Source: a virus (taxonomy: Duplodnaviria > Caudoviricetes). From it: 40,327 bases of DNA. The notes beneath the pieces are model-generated. The model saw only the letters and a program-made list of their open reading frames with translations, did not search any database and was not told where the DNA came from. Both the position numbers and the translations under genes were made by a program. The stretch's first letter is position 1. The number at the start of each line of letters is the position of its first letter. Below, piece by piece: positions 1,856-40,211 of this stretch. The DNA is taken from the IMG/VR virus record IMGVR_UViG_3300020181_000018, positions 1-40,327 of that record; one strand, written 5' to 3'.

Positions 1856-1898
1856 TTCATGTCCTTTCAAGACAGAGGTACTGCAATGTGGGCCTTGC

Positions 1899-2142: not shown

Positions 2143-2171
2143 GATGGTTCCTTTCAAGAGGTTATACGGTG

Positions 2172-2198
2172 TCATTATAGGCCTTGCAATTCTTGCGA
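2172..2198 (-). promoter_or_regulatory. Repeated promoter-like motif, copy 1
   Basis: Minus strand TCGCAAGAATTGCAAGGCCTATAATGA, with a TATAAT -10 box upstream of an RBS and ORF. Confidence 0.8.
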
Positions 2199-2201
2199 GG
2201 C

Positions 2202-2351
2202 TTACGTGACTGTTTCCGACCGCATTGCACGCTTTATTCGTCCGTCGATGTCGAATGTTTTAAACAGGATAAGAGACAGAACAAGTCCAACTTTAATCGC
2301 GTTCGGAGCATTCACTTTCTTAAGAACGAGAAGCGCTAATTCAGTATTCAC
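2202..2351 (-). CDS. Small hypothetical protein, 49 aa
   Basis: Hand-translated VNTELALLVLKKVNAPNAIKVGLVLSLILFK...ETVT*. GTGA overlap with the upstream stop, and it fills the gap exactly. Confidence 0.55.
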   Translation of the reverse strand: MNTELALLVLKKVNAPNAIKVGLVLSLILFKTFDIDGRIKRAMRSETVT

Positions 2352-2596
2352 GGCCAGTGAACGAGTTTACCGTTGACGTCATGATAATGGTTCTCGAGAT
2401 GGAATTCCCTACGGTCACACTTGGCGCCTGTGTCGGGATTGTCGAACTCGCAGATACCGTCCCAGTTGTCTCGAGCTTTAATTCGCTCCTGACGATCGAG
2501 ATCCTGAGTCTTGCGCCGCTGATGCAGCACGAGAACCAGAACTATGAGCGCAGCAATCAGAAGAATGATCAGCGGAACTACTTTTGGCCACATCAT
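2348..2596 (-). CDS. Membrane-anchored small protein with a Cys/His cluster
   Basis: N-terminal TM helix, then C-x10-C-x4-H-x3-H-x-H, a possible metal site. Confidence 0.75.
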   Translation of the reverse strand: MMWPKVVPLIILLIAALIVLVLVLHQRRKTQDLDRQERIKARDNWDGICEFDNPDTGAKCDRREFHLENHYHDVNGKLVHWP

Positions 2597-2751
2597 CGTA
2601 CAGGCTCCGATTCTACTTCCATGTCGGGGTGAGGGAACTCGCCGTGCTCCTGCTTGTACTTCCGACGAGCTTCGCTGAGGCTGGCTGCTTCGATCACGTG
2701 AGTGTTCTCCGTGTCGATGAATCGAAAGATGTTGTGTGTGCTCTTACTCAT
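2593..2751 (-). CDS. Hypothetical protein, 52 aa
   Basis: Hand-translated MSKSTHNIFRFIDTENTHVIEAASLSEARRKYKQEHGEFPHPDMEVESEPVR*. ATGA overlap with the next gene. Confidence 0.65.
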   Translation of the reverse strand: MSKSTHNIFRFIDTENTHVIEAASLSEARRKYKQEHGEFPHPDMEVESEPVR

Positions 2752-2783
2752 CAGCTTTCTACTCCCATTTTGAATGTTTTGTG

Positions 2784-2887
2784 TGCATACCCGGAGACTT
2801 GAACTCCGGATCTCAGAGGTTGTGTGTCGTAGGATTCAGGAATGGTTACCCGTCCTTGCCAACATGAGACGTCGCCGCCCCGTATGC
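2784..2887 (-). ncRNA. tRNA-like structured RNA (non-canonical)
   Basis: GCATAC/GTATGC acceptor-like stem, CCGGAG-TTCAAGT-CTCCGG T-arm, D-loop-like GCGGCGAC, and a GTCTCA/TGAGAT stem enclosing an insert of about 50 nt. Lies in an intergenic region. Confidence 0.6.
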
Positions 2888-2998
2888 GCCCCGAAGGGTT
2901 TGTCTATTTGAACCTTCAGAAACTCCGCTCAGGCCGATTCGAGGCTTACTCGAGTTCGCCGATACGACGGTCCATTATTTTGCGGAGGGTGTTGAGTG

Positions 2999-3205
2999 CT
3001 ACGACTTCAGCGAGTCCGCGAGCTCCTTACCGCCCGTCAGAAGCGCCTTGCCGGCGACAACAGCAGCCTGAACGGCGAAGACCGTCACGGTTGCTGCGAT
3101 GCCGACGCCGATCGACTTGATACCGGCGTCCTTGAGCTCCGGAAGTCCGAGGCTCTTGAGCGGGTTGTTGCTGGTGGTGTTGCTGGTTCCGGTGGACGTT
3201 GCCAT
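2999..3205 (-). CDS. Small membrane protein, 68 aa
   Basis: SD AAGGAG. Hydrophobic segment IGVGIAATVTVFAVQAAVVAG. Confidence 0.75.
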   Translation of the reverse strand: MATSTGTSNTTSNNPLKSLGLPELKDAGIKSIGVGIAATVTVFAVQAAVVAGKALLTGGKELADSLKS

Positions 3206-3247
3206 CAGTTTCTTCTCCTTGTTTGGTTACTGCGGTGGGTGGGGGTA

Positions 3248-4237
3248 TTACGGTACTGGCGTCGGGATCTGACCGAGAGACGTGAAGTCGTTCGGTACGA
3301 TGATGGTCTGAGACTTGCTCAAAGCATCGATCCAACGCTGCTGAAGGACCTGAGGAGTCAACGATGCGGACAGGAGACGGTTCGCCTCTGCCTCACCATT
3401 GGCACGAGCGATCTCCGCCTGTGCTTCACCGTCGGCCTTCGTCTTTGCGGTCTTCGCGTCTGTCTCAGCCTTCAGAAGGTCGGTCTGGGCGTTCTGAGCG
3501 TCCTTGAAGCGCTGTTCGACGTCGTCAGGATAACGGACGCCATGAATGTTCACATTCTCAACGAGAACACCTCGCTCGGCCCAGGATTCCCGAATGGTCT
3601 CTTCCACTTCCTGCCCGAAGCGCACACGCTCTTCGAACATCTGAACCGTGGTGAACGTGGAAGCTGTGTCGCGCGGAATTGACTTGACATCGTTCTCGAC
3701 GACCTTGATTTCGAAGTCGTTCTGATCGCTGAAGCCCTTCGTAAGATCCACAACCTTATCGGCCTTGATGGAGAACAAGACCTGAATATCCACGTCTGCA
3801 GAGATGCCGTCCTTGTCGCGAATCGTGATCTCAGCACCGGCGACCTGCTGACCATTGTGCGTGGTCTTTCCGTCTCCGGTAAACGTCACGTCCTGATTCT
3901 TGATGTCCCAAGCGATGTCGTTCTGCCAAGGAGCCTTGGTGTGGATACCGGCCTTAGTGACGGCTTCTTCCTGTACGACACCAGACCAGTCCTTGAGCAC
4001 GACGGACGATCCCGTATCGACCGAGAAAGTTGATGCAAAGATCGTGAAGATGACTCCCAAAGCAGCGAAAGCACCGGAGGCCAGAAGGAACCATCTCCGA
4101 CTTCCCCTGATCTTGATTTCTGTCGAATCGCCGAATCGGTCTCGTCGCGTTTCGGTGCGGCTCTTCGTACCCATGGTGTACATCAGTGCGAGACCGATGA
4201 TCGCCAGGATAAAGAAGATGATTGCGAATATGAACAT
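3248..4237 (-). CDS. SPFH / Band 7 / prohibitin-family membrane protein
   Basis: Two N-terminal TM helices, a GIHTKAPW motif, DGISADVDIQV, an Ala/Glu coiled coil (AEANRLLSASLTPQVLQQRWID). Confidence 0.9.
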   Translation of the reverse strand: MFIFAIIFFILAIIGLALMYTMGTKSRTETRRDRFGDSTEIKIRGSRRWFLLASGAFAALGVIFTIFASTFSVDTGSSVVLKDWSGVVQEEAVTKAGIHTKAPWQNDIAWDIKNQDVTFTGDGKTTHNGQQVAGAEITIRDKDGISADVDIQVLFSIKADKVVDLTKGFSDQNDFEIKVVENDVKSIPRDTASTFTTVQMFEERVRFGQEVEETIRESWAERGVLVENVNIHGVRYPDDVEQRFKDAQNAQTDLLKAETDAKTAKTKADGEAQAEIARANGEAEANRLLSASLTPQVLQQRWIDALSKSQTIIVPNDFTSLGQIPTPVP

Positions 4238-4261
4238 CGATTTTTCTCCTATTAGTGGATG

Positions 4262-4546
4262 CTACTTCTGATACCACGGAATATCGCGGTCCTCGCGTCC
4301 TTCCACGCAAGTAAACGGTGCACCATGGTAAGGGCCATACGGGGTTGAAATGACCTTGTTTAGGTCAGATTCGGATACGAGCTCATTGCAAGAAACACAT
4401 ACGACGGGTTTGCGCGTATTCCTCTCAAGGATCGCGTCCACTCGAGCGTGCTTCTCCTCCGGGGTTTCACCCCAATGAAGATTATCCGTCTTCTTCGGTG
4501 CGACGACGGATTCGCCACCGTTGGACAAGTTCGAGTCGATACTCAT
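4262..4546 (-). CDS. Hypothetical protein with a CxxC...H...C motif (start uncertain)
   Basis: The C-terminal part CVSC...YH...TC fills the gap before the SPFH gene. The true start may be further downstream. Confidence 0.55.
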   Translation of the reverse strand: MSIDSNLSNGGESVVAPKKTDNLHWGETPEEKHARVDAILERNTRKPVVCVSCNELVSESDLNKVISTPYGPYHGAPFTCVEGREDRDIPWYQK

Positions 4547-4814
4547 TAAGATTCCGATCTTCTGGAGTAGGCGGAAGAGAACGAACTTCCATTGGCGCGA
4601 ATTCGACGATGAAGTCTTCGTTGAAGGTGGCGACGACTCCGGGATCCTCGATGAGCTTCCGGAGAATATCGGCACGAACGTTATCGTTCTCCTCCATCAT
4701 TTGATCGAGAAGACGCTGTTTCGCGGACTTCGTTTCCTCCGATTCCAGATTTGGTTTCGGAAGAAGTTGGATTAGAGGAGCAGACGACTTGGGAAAATGA
4801 CCGCTGTAATCCAT
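4482..4814 (-). CDS. Hypothetical protein
   Basis: Start trimmed to MDYSGH at 4814, adjacent to the upstream stop at 4816, with a GGGAG SD. Confidence 0.7.
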   Translation of the reverse strand: MDYSGHFPKSSAPLIQLLPKPNLESEETKSAKQRLLDQMMEENDNVRADILRKLIEDPGVVATFNEDFIVEFAPMEVRSLPPTPEDRNLNEYRLELVQRWRIRRRTEEDG

Positions 4815-4815
4815 A

Positions 4816-5172
4816 TCAGTCTCCCAGTACGTCGAAGATGATGACGCCGTCATGCTCAATCTTGAGGGAAAGCTCTTTCGAATTCTCGTTTCGAGAGATT
4901 TCGATATGGATGTATCCGGTGCGATCCTTCGTCCAGCCGGCGATCTGTCCGACCATACGGGGTTTGATACCGAGATACTTGAGAAGATCGTTCAGGAAAA
5001 CGAAACCCTGAGCGTTGAGCAGATCATTGAAGTAGTTCTGCGCGGAGTTGATGAAGAAAACGTTGTACTCGTCCTTCGGGTAGAAGTTCGGGTTGTTCTC
5101 GTCGAAGATGTATTCTGTAACCGCGAGACGGCGCTCGAGTGCTTCGCGGTTGATGTTCATGACTCGTTCCAT
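4816..5172 (-). CDS. DUF6353-like C-terminal-domain protein, paralogue of 5259..6041
   Basis: Start MERVMN at 5172 behind GAAAGGA. GFVFLNDLLKYLG...GQIAGW matches GYVSLNTFLEYLG...GEVVGW in the neighbouring gene. Confidence 0.7.
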   Translation of the reverse strand: MERVMNINREALERRLAVTEYIFDENNPNFYPKDEYNVFFINSAQNYFNDLLNAQGFVFLNDLLKYLGIKPRMVGQIAGWTKDRTGYIHIEISRNENSKELSLKIEHDGVIIFDVLGD

Positions 5173-5196
5173 TTCGTGTCCTTTCAGGACAGATGA

Positions 5197-5237
5197 GGGG
5201 ACCCCCACATGTATTCGGGTTACATGCAGGGGTCCCA
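5197..5237. other. Intergenic stem-loop
   Basis: gggacccc/ggggtccc outer stem plus catgta/tacatg inner stem, between the two DUF6353-like genes. Confidence 0.65.
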
Positions 5238-5258
5238 GTCGTAATCGTCCGAGTCTCT

Positions 5259-6041
5259 TCAGAACGGACTGAGATAGTTCACAGATGGGGGTGTGATGTA
5301 ATCGATCGTGAGCACGGGCTTCTCGTCTCGAGCTGCGCCACCGATGCGAACTTCGAGAGGACGCTCGCGGGTCCAACCAACAACCTCTCCGGCCGGCGAA
5401 GTGGGCAGACCCAGGTACTCGAGGAACGTATTCAGCGACACGTATCCATCGTAAATGGCCTCACGGTTGGTGTCGTTTTCCGCGCGATGAATCTTCTCAG
5501 CATTGCTGACGAACACCTGCTTGGTGTGAGATTCGATCACCCAAACATCACCATCGTTGGGAAGACCGAGTCGATCGAACTCGGCCGACTTCTCATTGAC
5601 CTGATCCTGAATGAGTTCGTCGCGAACCTTCTGCTCCTTGGGGCGAGAGGTCGTTTCAACGATTTTCTGCTGATACTCGGAGAGAGCACGCTCAGAAATA
5701 GCTGCTGCGGAGATGAGCGCAAGCTGACGGTTGTTGCTGACACGGTTACTGCCGACGATAGCAACGGCGGTTGCGACTCCGACGATCGCCACGGGAATAT
5801 AGAACTTCCACGTGTCCTTGATGATCTCCTTCGGCGCCAGAGGCAGAACCTCTTCGTCGTCACTCGCGTTATCGAGACGCGCGGAAAATTCCGAGACAAC
5901 GTGAACGCCGGCCTTGTACCCAGCCTTCGATCCGAAATATGCGGTCGCGACGAGGCCCGCCACACTGAGCGTCGTGAGGATCTCCGGAGCATAACGCTTA
6001 GCGCCTACTGCGAGCTTGCTCATCTGATCCTGTACTGTCAT
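5259..6041 (-). CDS. DUF6353-like phage protein with an N-terminal TM helix
   Basis: KRYAPEILTTLSVAGLVATA start, a second hydrophobic stretch WKFYIPVAIVG, and C-terminal SLN...LGL...GW. Family assignment is from recalled motifs. Confidence 0.7.
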   Translation of the reverse strand: MTVQDQMSKLAVGAKRYAPEILTTLSVAGLVATAYFGSKAGYKAGVHVVSEFSARLDNASDDEEVLPLAPKEIIKDTWKFYIPVAIVGVATAVAIVGSNRVSNNRQLALISAAAISERALSEYQQKIVETTSRPKEQKVRDELIQDQVNEKSAEFDRLGLPNDGDVWVIESHTKQVFVSNAEKIHRAENDTNREAIYDGYVSLNTFLEYLGLPTSPAGEVVGWTRERPLEVRIGGAARDEKPVLTIDYITPPSVNYLSPF

Positions 6042-6316
6042 TACTTCTCTTCTTTCTGGTCATACACAGTGGTCTGGGGAGTCTTACGAACTCGAGTCGG
6101 GGGTCCGGTGAATTCGGCGGGGCGATAACGAATGATCGGATACCTGATGTCTCGCTGATGGTCTCGGATCACGACGATGATGTACGCGATCCAAACGACG
6201 ATAGCGAGGGCAACAATGAGCCACAGGGAAAGCGAGTCAGCTGCAGCCACGATCACGATGAGCGAGGCGAGTCCGAACGCGGTGAGGATGGTGAGCAGAA
6301 TATCCCGAATGCTCAT
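6041..6316 (-). CDS. Small two-TM membrane protein
   Basis: Two hydrophobic helices, SD GAAAGGAG, TAATG overlap with the next gene. Confidence 0.8.
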   Translation of the reverse strand: MSIRDILLTILTAFGLASLIVIVAAADSLSLWLIVALAIVVWIAYIIVVIRDHQRDIRYPIIRYRPAEFTGPPTRVRKTPQTTVYDQKEEK

Positions 6317-6317
6317 A

Positions 6318-6659
6318 TCATTCTCCTTTCAAGAGAGGGTATCGTGTCATCCACCGGGGACGACGTTCGTCAGCTATGAGATCGAATCCGAATCGCTCAT
6401 AGAAAGATACGAGTTGGTTGTTATCCAACGAGTTTCGCCAGTCGCCAAAGCGCTGAACTTCGAGCCAGATGGTAACACCGAGCTTATCCGCGTGACGCGT
6501 GGCTTCTAGCATTACTTCTTTGGCTTCTCCCTTACCTCGGCTCTCAGAATATAGGCCGATAAGTCGCGCAGTCGCATCGTCTTCGTACACGAGCGTTACT
6601 TGTGCATCGCCATAGTGAAAGGTAGTACGGGTAAGTCTACCGTGTTTGTCTCTAGTCAT
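6318..6659 (-). CDS. GNAT-family acetyltransferase
   Basis: Acetyl-CoA motif A (RGKGEAK) and C-terminal FYERFGF. Start MTRDK at 6659 behind GAGGAGG. Confidence 0.8.
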   Translation of the reverse strand: MTRDKHGRLTRTTFHYGDAQVTLVYEDDATARLIGLYSESRGKGEAKEVMLEATRHADKLGVTIWLEVQRFGDWRNSLDNNQLVSFYERFGFDLIADERRPRWMTRYPLLKGE

Positions 6660-6675
6660 CGACCCTCCTCTCAAG

Positions 6676-6740
6676 TCAAAAATAAGAAAGTGAAAGGCGC
6701 GTTCGCGCAGAACGCGATGTAATCCTTTCGGTTTACCCTT
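6676..6740 (-). ncRNA. Candidate sRNA of about 65 nt, or an empty expression cassette ending in a terminator
   Basis: Promoter copy 2 is followed by a GTAAACC-GAAA-GGATTAC hairpin, a CGCGTTC/GAACGCG hairpin and a U-rich tail. There is no start codon. Confidence 0.5.
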
Positions 6741-6767
6741 TCATTATAGGGCTTGCAATTCTTGCGA
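6741..6767 (-). promoter_or_regulatory. Repeated promoter-like motif, copy 2
   Basis: TCGCAAGAATTGCAAGCCCTATAATGA. Confidence 0.8.
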
Positions 6768-6769
6768 GG

Positions 6770-7102
6770 CTACGCGGCGATTTGAGGGTCTGTTTCTTCC
6801 TCAGGTTCTTCCAAGCCATTTCTTTCGAGATAGAGCGCGTATCGCTCTCGTGGGGTCAATCCACCGAACATTCCGTATCGGTCACTGGAGTGAGCAGTAA
6901 CTTCTTCAGTCATCGCTTTCTCGAGGCAATTTGAACGAACGAGGCAAGCACCGCAAACTTCTCGAGGAGGTATGTAACTACCGCCTTTATTGGGGAAGAA
7001 GATCTCGGGGTCTGTTTGAGCACAAAGTGCACTGTCCTGCCAGCGATGTTTCTGTGGGTTTTCAAACTCCACCTGATCGCTGTAAATTATAGCGTTTGGC
7101 AA
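6770..7102 (-). CDS. whiB: WhiB-family Fe-S transcription regulator
   Basis: WQDSALCAQTDPEIFFP...CGAC...C...YGMFGG...ER contains four Cys and a G[IV]WGG-like turn. Confidence 0.95.
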   Translation of the reverse strand: MPNAIIYSDQVEFENPQKHRWQDSALCAQTDPEIFFPNKGGSYIPPREVCGACLVRSNCLEKAMTEEVTAHSSDRYGMFGGLTPRERYALYLERNGLEEPEEETDPQIAA

Positions 7103-7114
7103 TGTACGTCTTTC

Positions 7115-7157
7115 GAGAAAAAGAAGAAGGCTCGCGGTTAGGCGAGCGTCCTTCTCT
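7115..7157 (-). terminator. Intrinsic terminator
   Basis: Minus strand AGAAGGACGCTCGCCTAACCGCGAGCCTTCTTCTTTTT, directly after the stop at 7159. Confidence 0.8.
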
Positions 7158-7158
7158 A

Positions 7159-7389
7159 TTACTTGTTGAGGGCGTGGTTCACGGATACTACCGCGATGGC
7201 ACCAGCAGTTGCTGCTCCAACCGTAGCGAGGGCCACGGCGCCGGCGCCGATGAAGAACTTCTTCCCGAGCTCGGTCGCTGCAGCTTTCGCTTCGGCAATG
7301 TAGTCGGGGGTGGGCTCTTGCGTCGGCTCCGTAGTCGTCGCCTTCTTCTTACGGGGGAAGAGGGTGATGGTGATTTCGGGCTTGAGCAT
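7159..7389 (-). CDS. Small membrane protein, 76 aa (cassette gene)
   Basis: SD GAAAGGA. C-terminal Ala/Gly/Val TM segment. Confidence 0.8.
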   Translation of the reverse strand: MLKPEITITLFPRKKKATTTEPTQEPTPDYIAEAKAAATELGKKFFIGAGAVALATVGAATAGAIAVVSVNHALNK

Positions 7390-7412
7390 GAGAATTTCCT
7401 TTCAAGTGGATG

Positions 7413-7439
7413 TCATTATAGGGGCTGTAAATCCTGCGA
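7413..7439 (-). promoter_or_regulatory. Repeated promoter-like motif, copy 3
   Basis: TCGCAGGATTTACAGCCCCTATAATGA. Confidence 0.8.
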
Positions 7440-7440
7440 G

Positions 7441-7482
7441 AAAGGAAAAGAAGAAAGCTCGCGATTAGGCGAGCACTCTTCT
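7441..7482 (-). terminator. Intrinsic terminator
   Basis: Minus strand AAGAAGAGTGCTCGCCTAATCGCGAGCTTTCTTCTTTT. The core is nearly identical to the 7115-7157 terminator. Confidence 0.8.
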
Positions 7483-7485
7483 TGG

Positions 7486-7665
7486 TTACTTCTTCTTGGG
7501 CTTCTTCACGTTGGTGATGACGTAGATCTTCTCGATCTTGATCGTTCCGGGGAGCGGCTTCTTCAGTCGGCGCTTGTTCACCTGGTTGGTGAGGACTGCA
7601 GCGCCAGCTGCGAGGGCAACTCCTCCAGCGGCCACGATGAGCTTGAGCTTGGTGTCTTCGTTCAT
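7486..7665 (-). CDS. Small membrane protein with a Lys-rich tail, 59 aa (cassette gene)
   Basis: Hand-translated MNEDTKLKLIVAAGGVALAAGAAVLTNQVNKRRLKKPLPGTIKIEKIYVITNVKKPKKK*. SD GAAAGGA. Confidence 0.8.
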   Translation of the reverse strand: MNEDTKLKLIVAAGGVALAAGAAVLTNQVNKRRLKKPLPGTIKIEKIYVITNVKKPKKK

Positions 7666-7686
7666 GATGTTTCCTTTCAGAGGGTG

Positions 7687-7713
7687 TCATTATAGGCCCT
7701 GTGAAAGTTGCGA
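7687..7713 (-). promoter_or_regulatory. Repeated promoter-like motif, copy 4
   Basis: TCGCAACTTTCACAGGGCCTATAATGA. Confidence 0.8.
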
Positions 7714-7720
7714 GCTAGCG

Positions 7721-7755
7721 AAAAAAGGAAAGGGCTCCGTTAAGAGCCCGATCCC
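7721..7755 (-). terminator. Intrinsic terminator
   Basis: Minus strand GGGCTC-TTAACG-GAGCCC followed by TTTCCTTTTTT. Confidence 0.8.
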
Positions 7756-7762
7756 GCTTGCA

Positions 7763-7888
7763 TCAGTACGACGGGTGGGTGACTTCGAAGTAGACGGCGT
7801 CGGCCTTCATCGTTCCGAAGAATTCGGTCATCAGCCCGTAGGCGGTGTCGAGTTCTTCGTCGGTGAGGAGTGACTGCTTTGTCTTCAT
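7763..7888 (-). CDS. Small acidic protein, 41 aa (cassette gene)
   Basis: Hand-translated MKTKQSLLTDEELDTAYGLMTEFFGTMKADAVYFEVTHPSY*. SD GAAAGG. Flanked by a promoter motif and a terminator. Confidence 0.75.
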   Translation of the reverse strand: MKTKQSLLTDEELDTAYGLMTEFFGTMKADAVYFEVTHPSY

Positions 7889-7921
7889 TTTAATCTACCT
7901 TTCAGAGGTGTTTGATGGATG

Positions 7922-7948
7922 TCATTATAGGGCCTGCAATTCTTGCGA
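7922..7948 (-). promoter_or_regulatory. Repeated promoter-like motif, copy 5
   Basis: TCGCAAGAATTGCAGGCCCTATAATGA. Confidence 0.8.
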
Positions 7949-7950
7949 GC

Positions 7951-7976
7951 GAAAAAGAAAGGCTCCGAAGAGCCCT
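7951..7976 (-). terminator. Intrinsic terminator with a cUUCGg tetraloop
   Basis: Minus strand GGGCTC-TTCG-GAGCCT followed by TTCTTTTT. Confidence 0.85.
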
Positions 7977-7979
7977 CCC

Positions 7980-8156
7980 TTATCGACCATAACGGTGTCG
8001 GATGTGATCCTGGGTTGCGAGGTAGATCAGCGCCTCCTTGGCGGCTGCACCGCCGAACTCCGATACCATGCGCTTCTGAGCGCGGTGGTATCCAACAGAG
8101 TAGGCGACGATGCTGATGCCAGCGAGGGCGAGTGCGATCTTAAGTCGTTCGTCCAT
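7980..8156 (-). CDS. Small membrane protein, 58 aa (cassette gene)
   Basis: Hand-translated MDERLKIALALAGISIVAYSVGYHRAQKRMVSEFGGAAAKEALIYLATQDHIRHRYGR*. SD GAAAGGA. Confidence 0.8.
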   Translation of the reverse strand: MDERLKIALALAGISIVAYSVGYHRAQKRMVSEFGGAAAKEALIYLATQDHIRHRYGR

Positions 8157-8177
8157 AGTGGTTCCTTTCGAGTGGTG

Positions 8178-8204
8178 TCACTATAGGGTCTGTGAAAAGT
8201 GCGA
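8178..8204 (-). promoter_or_regulatory. Repeated promoter-like motif, copy 6
   Basis: TCGCACTTTTCACAGACCCTATAGTGA. Confidence 0.75.
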
Positions 8205-8273
8205 AGCATTCATCAGGAAAACCCATCCGGGAAATTTTTGAAATGCGTGTTGATAATGCGAACCAAAACGGAA

Positions 8274-8311
8274 GGAGGTCCGGCGGCACAGTTACGTGCG
8301 TTAGGACCTCC
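8274..8311 (-). terminator. Stem-loop, possible terminator
   Basis: ggaggtcc/ggacctcc outer stem with a gcac/gtgc inner stem, followed on the minus strand by TTCCGTTTT. Confidence 0.55.
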
Positions 8312-8354
8312 TCCCATTTTGATGGTATCTGCCTTCTAGTGGCCGATGCCTGGT

Positions 8355-8642
8355 TCAGGGCTTGCGGATGAAGGTTGCTGCCTTCGAGGTGAACGAGTGT
8401 CCACGCTGTTCATAGATCATGATCAGCGCGATCCCACCGACAGACGCGATGACGGGGATCCAGTCCTTGAGCGTTGTACGATCCTTGGACTTGGGGTCCT
8501 TGATCTTGTACAGCTTGTCGAGCTGGTCCACACATTTAGCGTATTCGGCGGAATCTGCGGTGAGCGATTCCATTTCAGCGAAGACGGCTTTGATTGCCTC
8601 TTCGAGCTTGCTTTCTTCCTGCTTGCGGTTGATACCGAGCAT
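8355..8642 (-). CDS. Small protein with a C-terminal TM helix (cassette gene)
   Basis: SD GAAAGGAG. Helical N-terminus, then WIPVIASVGGIALIMIYE. Confidence 0.8.
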   Translation of the reverse strand: MLGINRKQEESKLEEAIKAVFAEMESLTADSAEYAKCVDQLDKLYKIKDPKSKDRTTLKDWIPVIASVGGIALIMIYEQRGHSFTSKAATFIRKP

Positions 8643-8667
8643 GTTGGTCTCCTTTCAAGAGATGATG

Positions 8668-8694
8668 TCACTATAGGGCTTGTAATCCTTGCGA
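8668..8694 (-). promoter_or_regulatory. Repeated promoter-like motif, copy 7, at the boundary between structural and accessory regions
   Basis: TCGCAAGGATTACAAGCCCTATAGTGA, immediately after the stop of the holin-like gene. Confidence 0.8.
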
Positions 8695-8695
8695 G

Positions 8696-9190
8696 TTAGT
8701 TCAGACCCTGACTCTGGTCCGGAACGAACTCGGCGATGATCTGATTCTTCGCAGCATCAGTCTTCGGGATGATAGCTCCCTGAGCCTTAGCGACGGCCTC
8801 AACCTTCTCGAGCTCCTGACTCTTACCGATGAAAACGGCAAGAAGCGAAGACAGCGAAGACAGAGCCAGTGATAAACCAGTCAGGAGAGCCGCATTCGTC
8901 TCGTCTGAGTAAAGACCGAAGAACACAAGAGACGGAGACACGGTAGCTGCCAACGAGTAGATCGCCGCTCGAACAACCGCCCAACCAGTGCCCCAATCAC
9001 CCTTACGAACGTTGACCAGGGACAGAATTGCCGCAAGGAACTGAATCACAGCACCCGCGATGATGAGTCCCTGCTCCGTCTGAGCCTGAGTGGCAAATCC
9101 ACCAAGAATCAGAAGAGGAGCGAGGGTACCGAGAAACAGCTGAATCTGCTGTCGACGCTCGGGTGTGAAGACCTTATTGAGGGTTTCCAT
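8696..9190 (-). CDS. Holin-like four-TM membrane protein
   Basis: Start METLNK at 9190 behind AAGGAG. Two tandem R..I[QY]...P.L...G two-TM units. Located at the end of the tail operon. Confidence 0.6.
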   Translation of the reverse strand: METLNKVFTPERRQQIQLFLGTLAPLLILGGFATQAQTEQGLIIAGAVIQFLAAILSLVNVRKGDWGTGWAVVRAAIYSLAATVSPSLVFFGLYSDETNAALLTGLSLALSSLSSLLAVFIGKSQELEKVEAVAKAQGAIIPKTDAAKNQIIAEFVPDQSQGLN

Positions 9191-21772: not shown

Positions 21773-22312
21773 TCAGCCCGAGGTTCCGTGTTGTTTCTGT
21801 CGCTGCTTGTTAAGAGCGTGACGCTCAGCAGCACTCATCTTTGGCCTGTTCTTCTCAGGCATGTTCTTGAGGTTCATCACCTTGATAAGGGTGAACAACT
21901 GATTTAGATGACGAGTTTCATAGTCGAGAGGAATATTAAACGAGATCATCCAGTAACGAATGAGTTCGTTCGTAATCTTCTCTCGAGAGGGCGCATTAGG
22001 AATCTCCCTGAATGTGGTTGCCGTCATCTGATCTTCGATGTAATCGTTGATCTGTCTGACATTCTCTTCAGACAATCTAAGAAGAACTGATCCATCGATG
22101 TTTTCGTCCAAACACATAGCGTGAATGTACGCAAGTGTCTCTTCGGAAGTCTTTTCTTCCCTACCAAGAAAGGCTTTATGAAAGATTGACTCCCATTTTG
22201 AAAGGGAGACCAGGGAATGCTCGAGCACCAGAACAGTATCTTCGGTGTACACAAACTTTTCAGTTGTTTCGTCGAAGGACTCGACGCCTGGCACTGTAAT
22301 GCTAATGGGCAT
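21773..22312 (-). CDS. Tail assembly chaperone
   Basis: Follows the major tail gene. LEHSLVSLSKWES and ITNELIRYWM...HLNQL motifs. Confidence 0.75.
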   Translation of the reverse strand: MPISITVPGVESFDETTEKFVYTEDTVLVLEHSLVSLSKWESIFHKAFLGREEKTSEETLAYIHAMCLDENIDGSVLLRLSEENVRQINDYIEDQMTATTFREIPNAPSREKITNELIRYWMISFNIPLDYETRHLNQLFTLIKVMNLKNMPEKNRPKMSAAERHALNKQRQKQHGTSG

Positions 22313-22350
22313 TCCCCGGTCTCCTCTCTCAGATGTGGATCACCCCTTGA

Positions 22351-34735: not shown

Positions 34736-35223
34736 TATCGCTTCCTCCACACATTTCCGCTGGGCACATAAATACCCAAGTCTCCAGACTCTGCTTCGTG
34801 AGGCCACACATCTTCAGCCTCGAGTTGCCACATGAAGGCGCCACCGGTGTAGATGGATCCGTCCTGGGCAAGAAGTGGCTTGTCGGCAGCGACGTTGATC
34901 AGCCACTCAGCTTTGTCGATCTGTTCCTTCTTAGCGGTCAAATCGAACGATGTCGTGGGCGGATCAAAAAGCATGCGTACCGAGAGATACATGTAACTCT
35001 TGACCTGATTAAGCAGCTTGTTACCGCCGAGATAATCAGACCAGACCTTAGTGCTATCCTCAATCTCAAAGCCATCCTTAGGACCGACGCCGAGTTGAGC
35101 AAGTCGCGCGAAAGTAGAGTTGATGTGAATGATGATGTCGGGGTCAAACCGCGTATAATCGTATTCGAGACCAAGGAGTTTCTTGGTCGTGTCCAAAATG
35201 CTGTTCGGAACTGCGGGCATCAT
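34735..35223 (-). CDS. Head-to-tail adaptor with a C-terminal extension
   Basis: SILDTTKKLLG...FDPDIIIHINS...QLGVGP...VKSYMYLSVRMLFDPPT. Confidence 0.75.
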   Translation of the reverse strand: MMPAVPNSILDTTKKLLGLEYDYTRFDPDIIIHINSTFARLAQLGVGPKDGFEIEDSTKVWSDYLGGNKLLNQVKSYMYLSVRMLFDPPTTSFDLTAKKEQIDKAEWLINVAADKPLLAQDGSIYTGGAFMWQLEAEDVWPHEAESGDLGIYVPSGNVWRKR

Positions 35224-35308: not shown

Positions 35309-35719
35309 TTACCAGAGCTTTGTATCGCCTGGAGTACGTTCGGTCCACTGCTCTCGGAGGAGTACTCGGGATCCGAAGTGAATAGCGTTATGGGTCTCGT
35401 GCGAGACGAGAACCAAGTTGTCAAGATCGAGAATAAGAGGGTTGAACTCTTCGAAGTCTTTCGGCGTCATCGGAATGATGTGATGCACGATAGGTTTGTC
35501 GAAGATCGGATACCCTTCAAGGCCCAGATCCATACCGTTCTCACGAGATATGACATCCCGTCGAACCGACTTCCATTCAGATGACTGATAGAATCGCTGG
35601 TTCAAATAACGGTCGTGTGCGAAGGTATCATGTCCGACTCCACCACCTAGGACAAGGTAATCGAATCGCTCTTCGAAGGTATTGAGCTGACGCATACCAG
35701 AATAAGTCCTGTTACGCAT
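35309..35719 (-). CDS. HNH endonuclease, packaging-associated
   Basis: Start MRNRTY at 35719. FYQSSEWKSVRRDVISR...VHHIIP...NLVLVSHETHNAIH. Confidence 0.9.
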   Translation of the reverse strand: MRNRTYSGMRQLNTFEERFDYLVLGGGVGHDTFAHDRYLNQRFYQSSEWKSVRRDVISRENGMDLGLEGYPIFDKPIVHHIIPMTPKDFEEFNPLILDLDNLVLVSHETHNAIHFGSRVLLREQWTERTPGDTKLW

Positions 35720-36074
35720 AGTACTCCTCGCCCTCAGGGGGAAGCTCTTCTCCAGAATAACCCTTGAAGGCACGAACCGCGCGCTCAAGAAGCTCTTCCA
35801 TACGATCGCCCTTACCCATCTGCTCTTGGCGAGCATCAAGAAGTCTGTTCTCCTTACGGAGCTTTTCTTCCTCAAGACGTTCACGTGTAGCGCCACGCTT
35901 GAGGAAATAGGTGGTCTCTTGTGATGTCGCAGTACCATCCAGGAGTCGTTTCTCGACCAGATCATAAGCTAGCGCAGTCAGCTGCTGCTCACGTTCCTCT
36001 GGAGTGGTTGCCGGAGGACCGGTGGGCGCATTACTCTGCGTGCTTACATCGGTGGCCTTCCGGCGCGGTGGCAT
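35712..36074 (-). CDS. Terminase small subunit (putative)
   Basis: 120 aa, helical. PATTPEEREQQL..LAYDLVEKRL.DGTATSQ. Upstream of the HNH gene. Confidence 0.65.
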   Translation of the reverse strand: MPPRRKATDVSTQSNAPTGPPATTPEEREQQLTALAYDLVEKRLLDGTATSQETTYFLKRGATRERLEEEKLRKENRLLDARQEQMGKGDRMEELLERAVRAFKGYSGEELPPEGEEYYA

Positions 36075-36928: not shown

Positions 36929-37009
36929 GAGATCACCTCCTTAAAAGTATCGATTCAAGCATTACTTAGAGCAATACTTTGAGTAAGTCATGAAAGCAAA
37001 TTTTGAAGG

Positions 37010-37160
37010 ATCTGTTTGGGGACTCCCACAAGGGACGCCAGACTTCTAACACGCGCCATAGCGCGAGCTCTTGAAAGGAGAGACCGGGAGAGGGGCTGAT
37101 GAAACCCACGACGGTCTACTTGCGAAGACTGGCGACCCATGAAGGAGTCCCCAAACAGAT
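37010..37160 (-). ncRNA. Candidate structured RNA of about 150 nt
   Basis: 17-bp perfect terminal stem atctgtttggggactcc/ggagtccccaaacagat, continued by GGG-CGCCAG-CTTC helices into a multibranch loop. G-U pairs favour the minus strand. Confidence 0.7.
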
Positions 37161-37696
37161 TACTCGTCCGGATCCTTCTCCGGAACCCAACTAGCGCCGT
37201 CAGGTTCATCGGAGTCTGAATGAGGTCGGACCAACTGTCGCATCCATGCAGGCCTTTCAGGAGGCCCTGGTGGATACGGAATAAGCGCTTCTAGAAGAAG
37301 CACATGTGTGATTGCCTCGTGTCTCTCGTCTTCCAACGATCGGACTCTACGGCTTAGTTTATTAGCCTTTTCCTCCGCAGCTTCTGCTTTGGCGTTTGCC
37401 TCGCTCGCTTTGATTTCAGCGGCGTTAGCTTTTGCCTCTGCGGTTTCTGCTCTCCCCGAAACGGCCGCAAGGGACCTTTCGAACCCCTCGATGATCGCTT
37501 GGAATTGATGCGTCTCGGCTTCCGTTTCCGAAATCGCGACGCTTTTCTCGGTGGTCTTCTGTTGTCCTTTATCACGAAGACGCTGGACAATGCCTGTGGA
37601 GACGACACCGAGAAACACAAAGAATGGGGCAGCCAGAACTAGGAAGAGGATCAAAAGGGGAAAATCCCTAAAGAACTCGATTAGTTCCGGTGACAT
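37160..37696 (-). CDS. Membrane protein with a coiled coil (lysis cassette)
   Basis: N-terminal TM helix, Ala/Glu/Lys heptads, C-terminal PYPPGPPERP. Confidence 0.75.
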   Translation of the reverse strand: MSPELIEFFRDFPLLILFLVLAAPFFVFLGVVSTGIVQRLRDKGQQKTTEKSVAISETEAETHQFQAIIEGFERSLAAVSGRAETAEAKANAAEIKASEANAKAEAAEEKANKLSRRVRSLEDERHEAITHVLLLEALIPYPPGPPERPAWMRQLVRPHSDSDEPDGASWVPEKDPDE

Positions 37697-40133: not shown

Positions 40134-40211
40134 TGGGACCAGTAGGATTCGAACCTACGTGTGGTATACCTGATTTACAGTCAGGCGCAGTCGCCGCTGT
40201 GCCATAGTCCC
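40134..40211 (-). tRNA. tRNA-Tyr (GTA), CCA not encoded
   Basis: GGGACTA/TGGTCCC acceptor stem, CCTGA-CTGTAAA-TCAGG anticodon arm, GTAGG-TTCGAAT-CCTAC T-arm. The 3' end reads ACAA. Confidence 0.93.

Follow-up and report, generated by a model that had tools for sequence, protein, structure and literature searches.

An RNA element with an open anti-ribosome-binding-site loop recurs across a phage group and may act on early genes in trans

Introduction

The shut-off of phage early genes upon the onset of late transcription is mostly explained by proteins. The locus described here raises the question of whether, in one group of phages, an RNA could take part in it. The window, by which we mean the whole stretch of DNA analysed (40,327 nucleotides), is the left 40 kb of a siphophage genome in reversed orientation, with the main genes all on the minus strand. 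An earlier note on this DNA had drawn attention to a structured RNA in its late region, a loop of which would pair with the ribosome-binding sites (RBSs) of early accessory genes and shut off their translation; a structural RNA for packaging was named as the alternative. What is this element, how widely is it found, and which genes could it address?

Genomic setting

Read from the left end of the genome, the genes of the window encode a tRNA, an endolysin and two small products, after which come the element, a DUF7211 gene, phrog_4259, HNH, the large terminase, the portal, a protease-capsid fusion, the tail genes and the holin. Past the holin lie small genes behind promoter-like repeats, and the right arm with the replication genes is outside the window. 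The element begins at the stop codon of the preceding 178-aa gene (37160-37696), behind the lysis genes and 3.2 kb from the left end. Its earlier placement just upstream of the packaging module is true only loosely: the next gene is that of DUF7211, and the large terminase starts 6.7 kb further on. In the gut members of the group, only some tens of bases separate the element from the left end, and the HNH and terminase genes follow it. The features that concern the setting are as follows.

37010..37160, minus strand: structured RNA element of 151 nt, with a ~34-bp interrupted basal stem closing a multibranch loop
36095..36928, minus strand: DUF7211 / phrog_7502 gene, next downstream of the element; its RBS pairs with the element hardly at all (-0.1 kcal/mol, opening costs included)
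35712..36074, minus strand: phrog_4259 gene, the usual gene right behind the element in relatives; candidate small terminase by position

A fold model of the phrog_4259 product and a search with it gave no significant named match. The large terminase of the window phage is 87% identical to that of Microbacterium phage Count, and terminase matches extend to 251 GenBank records, including phages of Arthrobacter, Gordonia, Streptomyces and Lactococcus and the Faecalibacterium phage oengus. The passages of PMC7302621 that deal with Count group it with clusters AM, AU, BI, CC and DJ and give its genome ends as 3' 9-base cohesive ends; oengus is described, in the pertinent part of PMC10159846, as a member of the candidate family 'Sisseviridae', found in 80% of infants.

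Several other observations were made on the window and its relatives. The tRNA gene at the left end (window 40134-40211, the left end being 40327) is placed as is the tRNA-Tyr gene of Count, and the terminal sequence is of the same type as in the GenBank relatives. Seven promoter-like repeats of the form TCGCR-N11-14-TATARTGR head the small non-structural genes at 2165-8698; none was found in the first 24 kb of ten actinophage sequences. Another motif, TCAAAATGG, recurs 7-16 times, mostly in the structural region, in five genomes including the window and relatives, and is a candidate late promoter or processing motif. Relatives also encode, among the last genes before the left end, phrog_4291, labelled as an RNA-dependent RNA polymerase. 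One 372-base contig of a relative was found in two sequencing runs, both probably of DNA.

Fold, strand and covariation

The 17-bp closing stem (37010-37026 with 37144-37160) and the helices nested within it, as first described, are present, and the stem is the longest of the 741 inverted pairs in the window. When both strands were folded, the minus strand gave -85 kcal/mol (z -9.70), a value as low as which was reached by none of 200 shuffles; the plus strand was nearly equal (z -9.61), so that the window alone leaves the strand unfixed. It is the relatives that decide: 18 G-U cells were found there against 1 A-C cell, which favours the coding (minus) strand. The claim that wobble pairs point to the minus strand thus stands on the relatives and not on the folds. 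The parts of the element are listed below.

37081..37117, minus strand: inner helix AGACCG/CGGUCU, in which 3/6 pairs covary
37068..37081, minus strand: anti-Shine-Dalgarno (anti-SD) seed UCUCCUUUCAAGAG, with core CUCCUUUC and a CAAGA extension common to the actinophage members
37052..37065, minus strand: variable hairpin arm CGCGC/GCGCG, not conserved in sequence
37093..37107, minus strand: small invariant hairpin with CAU (anti-AUG) in its loop, from the alignment of relatives

Six sequences were aligned for covariation, namely the window, four metagenomic loci and Count (mean column identity 82%). In these, 14 of 45 pairs change on both sides and 99% of cells pair; 0/500 shuffles scored as high and slid controls came nowhere near, these controls being lenient since the structure was derived from the same six sequences. 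Both the expected covariation in relatives and the expected conservation of the seed are borne out. The sequences that are invariant across all six are the seed core with its CAAGA flank and the CAU hairpin, the loop of which is a possible second seed. The CGCGC/GCGCG arm, present as described, belongs by contrast to the variable part.

The seed was said to lie open between the arms, and this applies to its interior: the predicted unpaired probability is 0.42-1.0 for the inner eleven bases but 0.05 for the first and 0.19 and 0.03 for the last two, so the first and last one or two bases are predicted to be paired.

The element is uncatalogued, there being no Rfam model for it. A search of the window at E<=1 returned one tRNA and two chance matches elsewhere, and searches at the gathering score with 13 and with 10 loci of relatives returned tRNAs only. 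Neither a sigma-70-like site nor a terminator was found at the element on the minus strand, phage-polymerase promoters lying outside the scope of that search. A minus-strand 73-aa open reading frame (ORF) over the element (36988-37209) was considered as a gene and rejected: it belongs to no family, and the relatives have stop codons in differing frames across the element, together with 1-2-nt indels. No conserved small ORF, by which a cis-antisense RNA or type I antitoxin would be recognized, was found opposite the element.

Spread across the phage group

To see how far the element extends, loci of the phrog_4259 gene were collected: 12 at the outset, then the best 80 of 377 viral loci, the best 80 of 398 metagenomic loci and all 34 genome loci, with Count and Eevee also taken in. 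Removal of the window's own contig, exact duplicates, near-copies and loci with <150 nt upstream left 134 non-redundant loci. Among these, which include the best-ranked viral and metagenomic sets, CTCCTTT occurs 20-260 nt before phrog_4259 in 77, as compared with 2-12 loci when six permutations of the word are searched and 1 when the opposite strand is; 57 loci are without an exact seed at that place. The median distance of the seed from the phrog_4259 start is 104 nt. Of the 77 seed-bearing loci, 71 fold at z -3 or lower, 73 have a seed more open than the rest of the fold and 73 have at least 20 pairs enclosing it.

The sequence itself is kept to a far smaller extent than the shape. Stem sequences are unrelated between phage groups, and the 8-nt core, with C at its eighth position in 90% of the 77, is the only sequence kept family-wide. 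A CAT 5-9 nt before the seed shows a modest family-wide enrichment (22 occurrences over 5 positions in the 77 loci), and in the actinophage members an anti-AUG lies 7-9 or 18-19 nt upstream of the seed. The element is present in Count, Camille, Eevee, Gordon, Circum, Michelle, oengus and the dairy phage 1706; searches of the first 50 kb of ClubPenguin, Bing and Tanis, and of G017, all of which share the terminase, did not find it. It is a real and widespread element that recurs across the Count/Gordon/Circum/oengus/1706 phage group.

Inspection of these loci yielded a number of side observations. In the leaders that lack the element, those of Bing (L274:100-150), L049, L054 and L076, the first gene is preceded by a C-rich tract, which may be a regulator of another kind or a degenerate one. 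Eevee has an unannotated stretch after the element (L015:2040-2130) that is tRNA-like by eye, and the right arm of Camille contains the seed a second time, in antisense (L273:39979). Annotated coding sequences overlap the element in Count (gp7, L013:2502, for which a start at 2685 is more likely) and in Circum (gp2, L138:372-569, which may not be a gene), and these are two probable annotation errors. Tanis has, in its early arm, a 171-nt long-stem RNA (L255:36001-36171) with a C/U loop that holds a 10-nt complement to the holin RBS, possibly a regulator working in the reverse direction; as an RNA that addresses early RBSs it was rejected, since it does not match those of Tanis.

Seed and predicted targets in the window

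The exact partners that had been given for the 14-mer seed were both found, and each is an RBS. The three shorter sites were found as well.

8648..8661, minus strand: predicted target RBS, 14 nt; 95-aa phrog_5818 gene (8355-8642), the first after the tail/holin block
6322..6335, minus strand: predicted target RBS, 14 nt; 91-aa gene 6041-6316, upstream of DUF6353
2149..2160, minus strand: predicted target RBS, 12 nt; 62-aa gene starting at 2142, behind a promoter-like repeat
1862..1872, minus strand: predicted target RBS, 11 nt; 205-aa gene starting at 1855
7397..7406, minus strand: predicted target RBS, 10 nt; 76-aa gene starting at 7389, behind a promoter-like repeat

The list was not complete in presenting the targets as early accessory genes throughout, as it missed an 11-nt match at a structural-region gene with its start at 35223/35220. 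Complements of at least 11 nt to the element occur in 5/61 start regions of the window, a number that none of 798 other 151-nt windows reaches (maximum 2). With opening costs included, the top four of the 61 candidate targets are the genes at 8642, 2142, 6316 and 6659 (-12.2 to -8.3 kcal/mol), all of them non-structural; the rank test over all starts of the window is weak (p 0.04). The top-ranked target is the RBS at 8648-8661, which lies right behind a promoter-like repeat and is matched in all element-carrying actinophages. It begins at most ten bases from the promoter-like -10 box and so would sit at the 5' end of the mRNA. No named look-alike was found for the phrog_5818 protein that it serves.

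The RBS of the gene starting at 22312, with a 9-11-nt fit to a strand of the inner helix, was considered as a further target and rejected: the relative G013 keeps this RBS and changes the helix on both sides, so the fit is no target signal. The same gene (phrog_4338, 21773-22312) presents a different feature, a long-range stem at ~22200-22330 in which its RBS and start codon are predicted to pair with its own codons ~90 nt downstream. The stem, which varies in sequence, is predicted for the window and for 13 of the 14 other genomes that the motif identified (G010 being the exception), and is probably a cis control of dosage for this tail-chaperone-like gene.

Partner genes across genomes

Does the preference for non-structural genes hold in the relatives? 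For 17 genomes (G013, which is without its early arm, was excluded), the longest perfect match of each gene start to the genome's own seed was recorded, with starts from a home-made caller and 'early' assigned by position and promoter-like repeats. Matches of at least 10 nt were found at 25/152 non-structural starts of five actinophages against 1/131 in the structural region, and at 62/509 against 10/252 in the 12 other genomes, the threshold and the early/late borders having been set after viewing the maps and starts between the borders excluded. GAAAGGA is used by 160/661 early genes, against 54/383 in the comparison set, and because the seed core is a generic anti-SD, part of the early-gene signal is the commoner use of this word.

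The best-matched orthologues include phrog_5818 (13-14 nt in 5/5 actinophages, 0 in the one gut member) and the DNA polymerase (8-12 nt, 8 genomes); in gut members (G003, G004, G006, G011 and others) the seed matches the start of the polymerase half of the primase/polymerase over 8-15 nt, which places this gene among the best matched. There is also phrog_4282 in the structural region, behind the major tail gene of gut members, with matches of up to 13 nt.

Own RBSs fit the seeds better than foreign ones in the 12 non-actinophage genomes (permutation p 2e-4 by length and 9e-4 by energy), with the cognate set ranking first in 5/12 rows. When the flanks were shuffled with the core fixed, 13/23 seeds passed at p<0.05 and 10/23 failed. 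The passes comprise 7/7 actinophage seeds, which share one sequence and are not independent, and 6/15 others; the second loop of phage 1706 fails, and several gut members have no flank specificity. Phage 1706 itself provides what appears, by its complementarity, to be the clearest case of seed/RBS matching: the seed matches orf27 over 20 nt, orf52 over 17 nt, orf47 over 14 nt and orf56 over 12 nt, 13 of the top 14 matches lie outside the structural block, and a third loop matches 12 nt across the start codons of orf23-25. In G015, matches of 16-17 nt were found to four non-structural genes.

The extended RBS and the element also tend to be present and absent together. Among actinophage sequences that extend into the early arm, 7/7 with the element have TCTTGAAAGGA 2-8 times; 4/4 relatives without the element have no copy. 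Three of these four were checked, and all three retain the orthologous first early gene with a different RBS. A quick terminase tree puts this co-loss at one or two events, and as an event count it is therefore weak.

Alternative explanations

The reading of the element as an RNA that acts in trans on RBSs finds strong comparative support in the open seed, the non-structural bias, the cognate fit and the co-loss with the extended RBS. Several other readings have to be weighed against it. The simplest would make the loop a copy of the 16S 3' tail that damps any mRNA with a GAAAGGAG-type RBS, those of the host above all, so that the early genes would be incidental. That the core alone is kept family-wide, with its near-constant eighth C, and that flank specificity is missing in those gut members speak in its favour, and the core is presumably like the 16S tail, as a remark in the paper on the start-associated sequences (SAS) of mycobacteriophages suggests. 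Late genes of the same phages, such as capsid and portal, also use GAAAGGAG, however, and the own-genome fit and the matches of 13-20 nt call for phage-specific partners, which makes this an unlikely account. It is improbable too, in our estimation, that the RBS pairing is real and serves another end, be it RNase III decay of the duplex, the fine-tuning of a few genes or a protein that reads both loop and tag. The evidence is one of complementarity, and nucleases could act on duplexes of 14-20 bp; for recognition by a protein, copies on opposite strands that change together in a phage-specific manner would be unnecessary.

Two readings draw on position. A late leader acting in cis, the loop pairing with the SD of the next gene to time its translation, would suit the short distance between seed and phrog_4259, a gene that has a GAAAGGAG SD in many gut members. 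Yet the phrog_4259 RBS is poorly matched (mean 4.6 nt to its own seed and 4.7 nt to foreign seeds, 17 genomes), the next gene of the window hardly pairs at all, and the gene after the element varies (DUF7211 here, orf1 in 1706, a 218-aa gene in G015) while the seed stays; we regard this reading as highly improbable. Packaging, whether through a pRNA-like RNA or a DNA cruciform near cos, is suggested by the place of the element in gut members, near the left end and ahead of the HNH and terminase genes. In the window, by contrast, it lies well inside that end, its stems share no sequence with those of other groups, the G-U pairs point to a single RNA strand, and ClubPenguin, Bing, Tanis and G017 do without it while sharing the terminase. 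A phi29-type pRNA was looked for by family model and by conserved scaffold, with neither found, and the RBS matches would be left unexplained. The alternative offered at the outset has thus become very improbable indeed. That the functional unit is on the opposite strand, where an SD and ATG would start a small antisense peptide, strikes us as hardly credible: an ATG does follow an SD-like word in 12/12 actinophage elements examined, and Circum gp2 is annotated as such a reverse gene, but the frames in these 12 run to 11-66 codons, have no common sequence and shift among close relatives, and the strand evidence favours the coding strand.

Proposed mechanism

We consider it probable, on grounds of sequence comparison, that a late-transcribed RNA represses the translation of early genes in trans by way of the anti-RBS loop. 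The grounds are the conserved open seed, the bias to non-structural genes, the better fit of cognate than of foreign RBSs and the loss together with the extended RBS. Late timing is suggested by position: here the element begins with the stop codon of the gene before it, and in gut members it is found only a little way inside the left end. It would be transcribed with the lysis/virion transcript of the left end, possibly by the phage's own single-chain polymerase (phrog_4291 in relatives), which may be akin to YonO. The long stem would protect the RNA and may be cut out by RNase III, a release that the length of the stem makes plausible; alternatively, the RNA could act inside the mRNA. The CUCCUUUC core would cover the SD, and the flank, CAAGA here, would read the bases upstream of it and thereby select a tagged set of early RBSs over late ones, with the CAU loop perhaps adding a start-codon contact. 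Blocked loading of 30S subunits on the targeted mRNAs would free ribosomes for virion proteins, and in gut members DNA polymerase synthesis would be damped as well.

The anatomy would fit an antisense mirror image of a translation start, comprising a U-rich stretch, an anti-SD core and a phage-specific flank. The bases upstream of the SD with which the flank would pair are presumably beyond the reach of the 16S tail, and another partner is therefore needed. The host 16S tail was sought in one genome, G018, with no match.

A wider claim may be ventured tentatively, as possible rather than probable. In it, the phages of the whole family, whether they infect Actinobacteria or Firmicutes, would set phage-specific tags beside the SDs of their early genes, and the first late RNA would read the tag, and in places the start codon, to switch the gene class off; the three loops of 1706 would address three classes of RBS. 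It could also account for two cases discussed below, namely the orphan SAS copies in reverse orientation in cluster K mycobacteriophages and the non-coding RNA that SPbeta has in its late leader, and RNA-based early shut-off would then be a general phage strategy.

Were the trans-repression reading true, this very common phage group, to which oengus, the dairy phage 1706 and many actinophages in culture belong, would have a further, post-transcriptional switch in the form of a late RNA that recognizes early RBSs by their tags. Cultured phage-host pairs (Count or Camille with Microbacterium, Circum or Gordon with Arthrobacter, 1706 with L. lactis) make the reading open to direct test, and the RNA would offer a natural scaffold for programmable RBS silencing in Gram-positive hosts.

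Comparison with known systems

The packaging RNA of the phi29 type is of similar size and lies next to packaging genes. The element differs in belonging to cos-type siphophages with a large terminase and in having the anti-RBS loop as its conserved feature. No description of it was found in the literature searched; it may be listed among the 8,495 candidate structures of PMC10690425, in PMC5737381 or in the material of Weinberg 2017.

Several phage small RNAs are treated in the relevant part of 10.1101/2024.10.31.621285. OOP, PreS, LPR2, StxS and VpdS act by base pairing, and two of them, LPR2 and StxS, originate in the region of the late operon. OOP has a single mRNA as its antisense partner; PreS depends on Hfq and has host genes as its targets. 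For none of the five does that account speak of an anti-SD loop that reads a class of the phage's own early RBSs. In SPbeta, an unannotated non-coding RNA is placed at the start of the late operon transcribed by YonO (PMC5467207, in its account of that operon). In SPbeta (L275), a phage unrelated to those treated here, we find a multibranch hairpin ~100 nt before yonK; its open loop contains UUUCAU-CUCCUUU, an anti-SD/anti-AUG sequence similar to that of the element, and it may be the RNA of that account. Partners of the SPbeta 12-mer are no more numerous in the SPbeta genome than in the control (4 matches, itself among them, against 4).

A close precedent for the tag is the SAS of cluster K mycobacteriophages, which the sections of PMC3203893 that define it present as a 13-bp extended RBS limited to non-structural genes. 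Some of its conserved bases are unable to pair with 16S rRNA, the argument made here for the flank, and its authors leave the binding of RNA or protein open; four genomes carry one copy in the opposite orientation (PMC3203893). An extended RBS of non-structural genes together with one reversed copy is what the element-bearing phages have as well. Sequence and phage group are different, those sections describe no hairpin RNA, and the tag here, (C)TCTTGAAAGGA(G), is unlike the 13-bp SAS consensus.

RNAIII and RsaE of S. aureus are trans-acting small RNAs that cover SD sequences with C/U-rich loops. The element resembles them in its open C/U-rich seed on a structured scaffold and in its several, here predicted, RBS targets, and by this analogy it is likely to work as they do. 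It differs in being phage-encoded, in lying within a presumed late transcript and in being aimed, as predicted, at the phage's own genes, and its scaffold is one long stem without conserved sequence.
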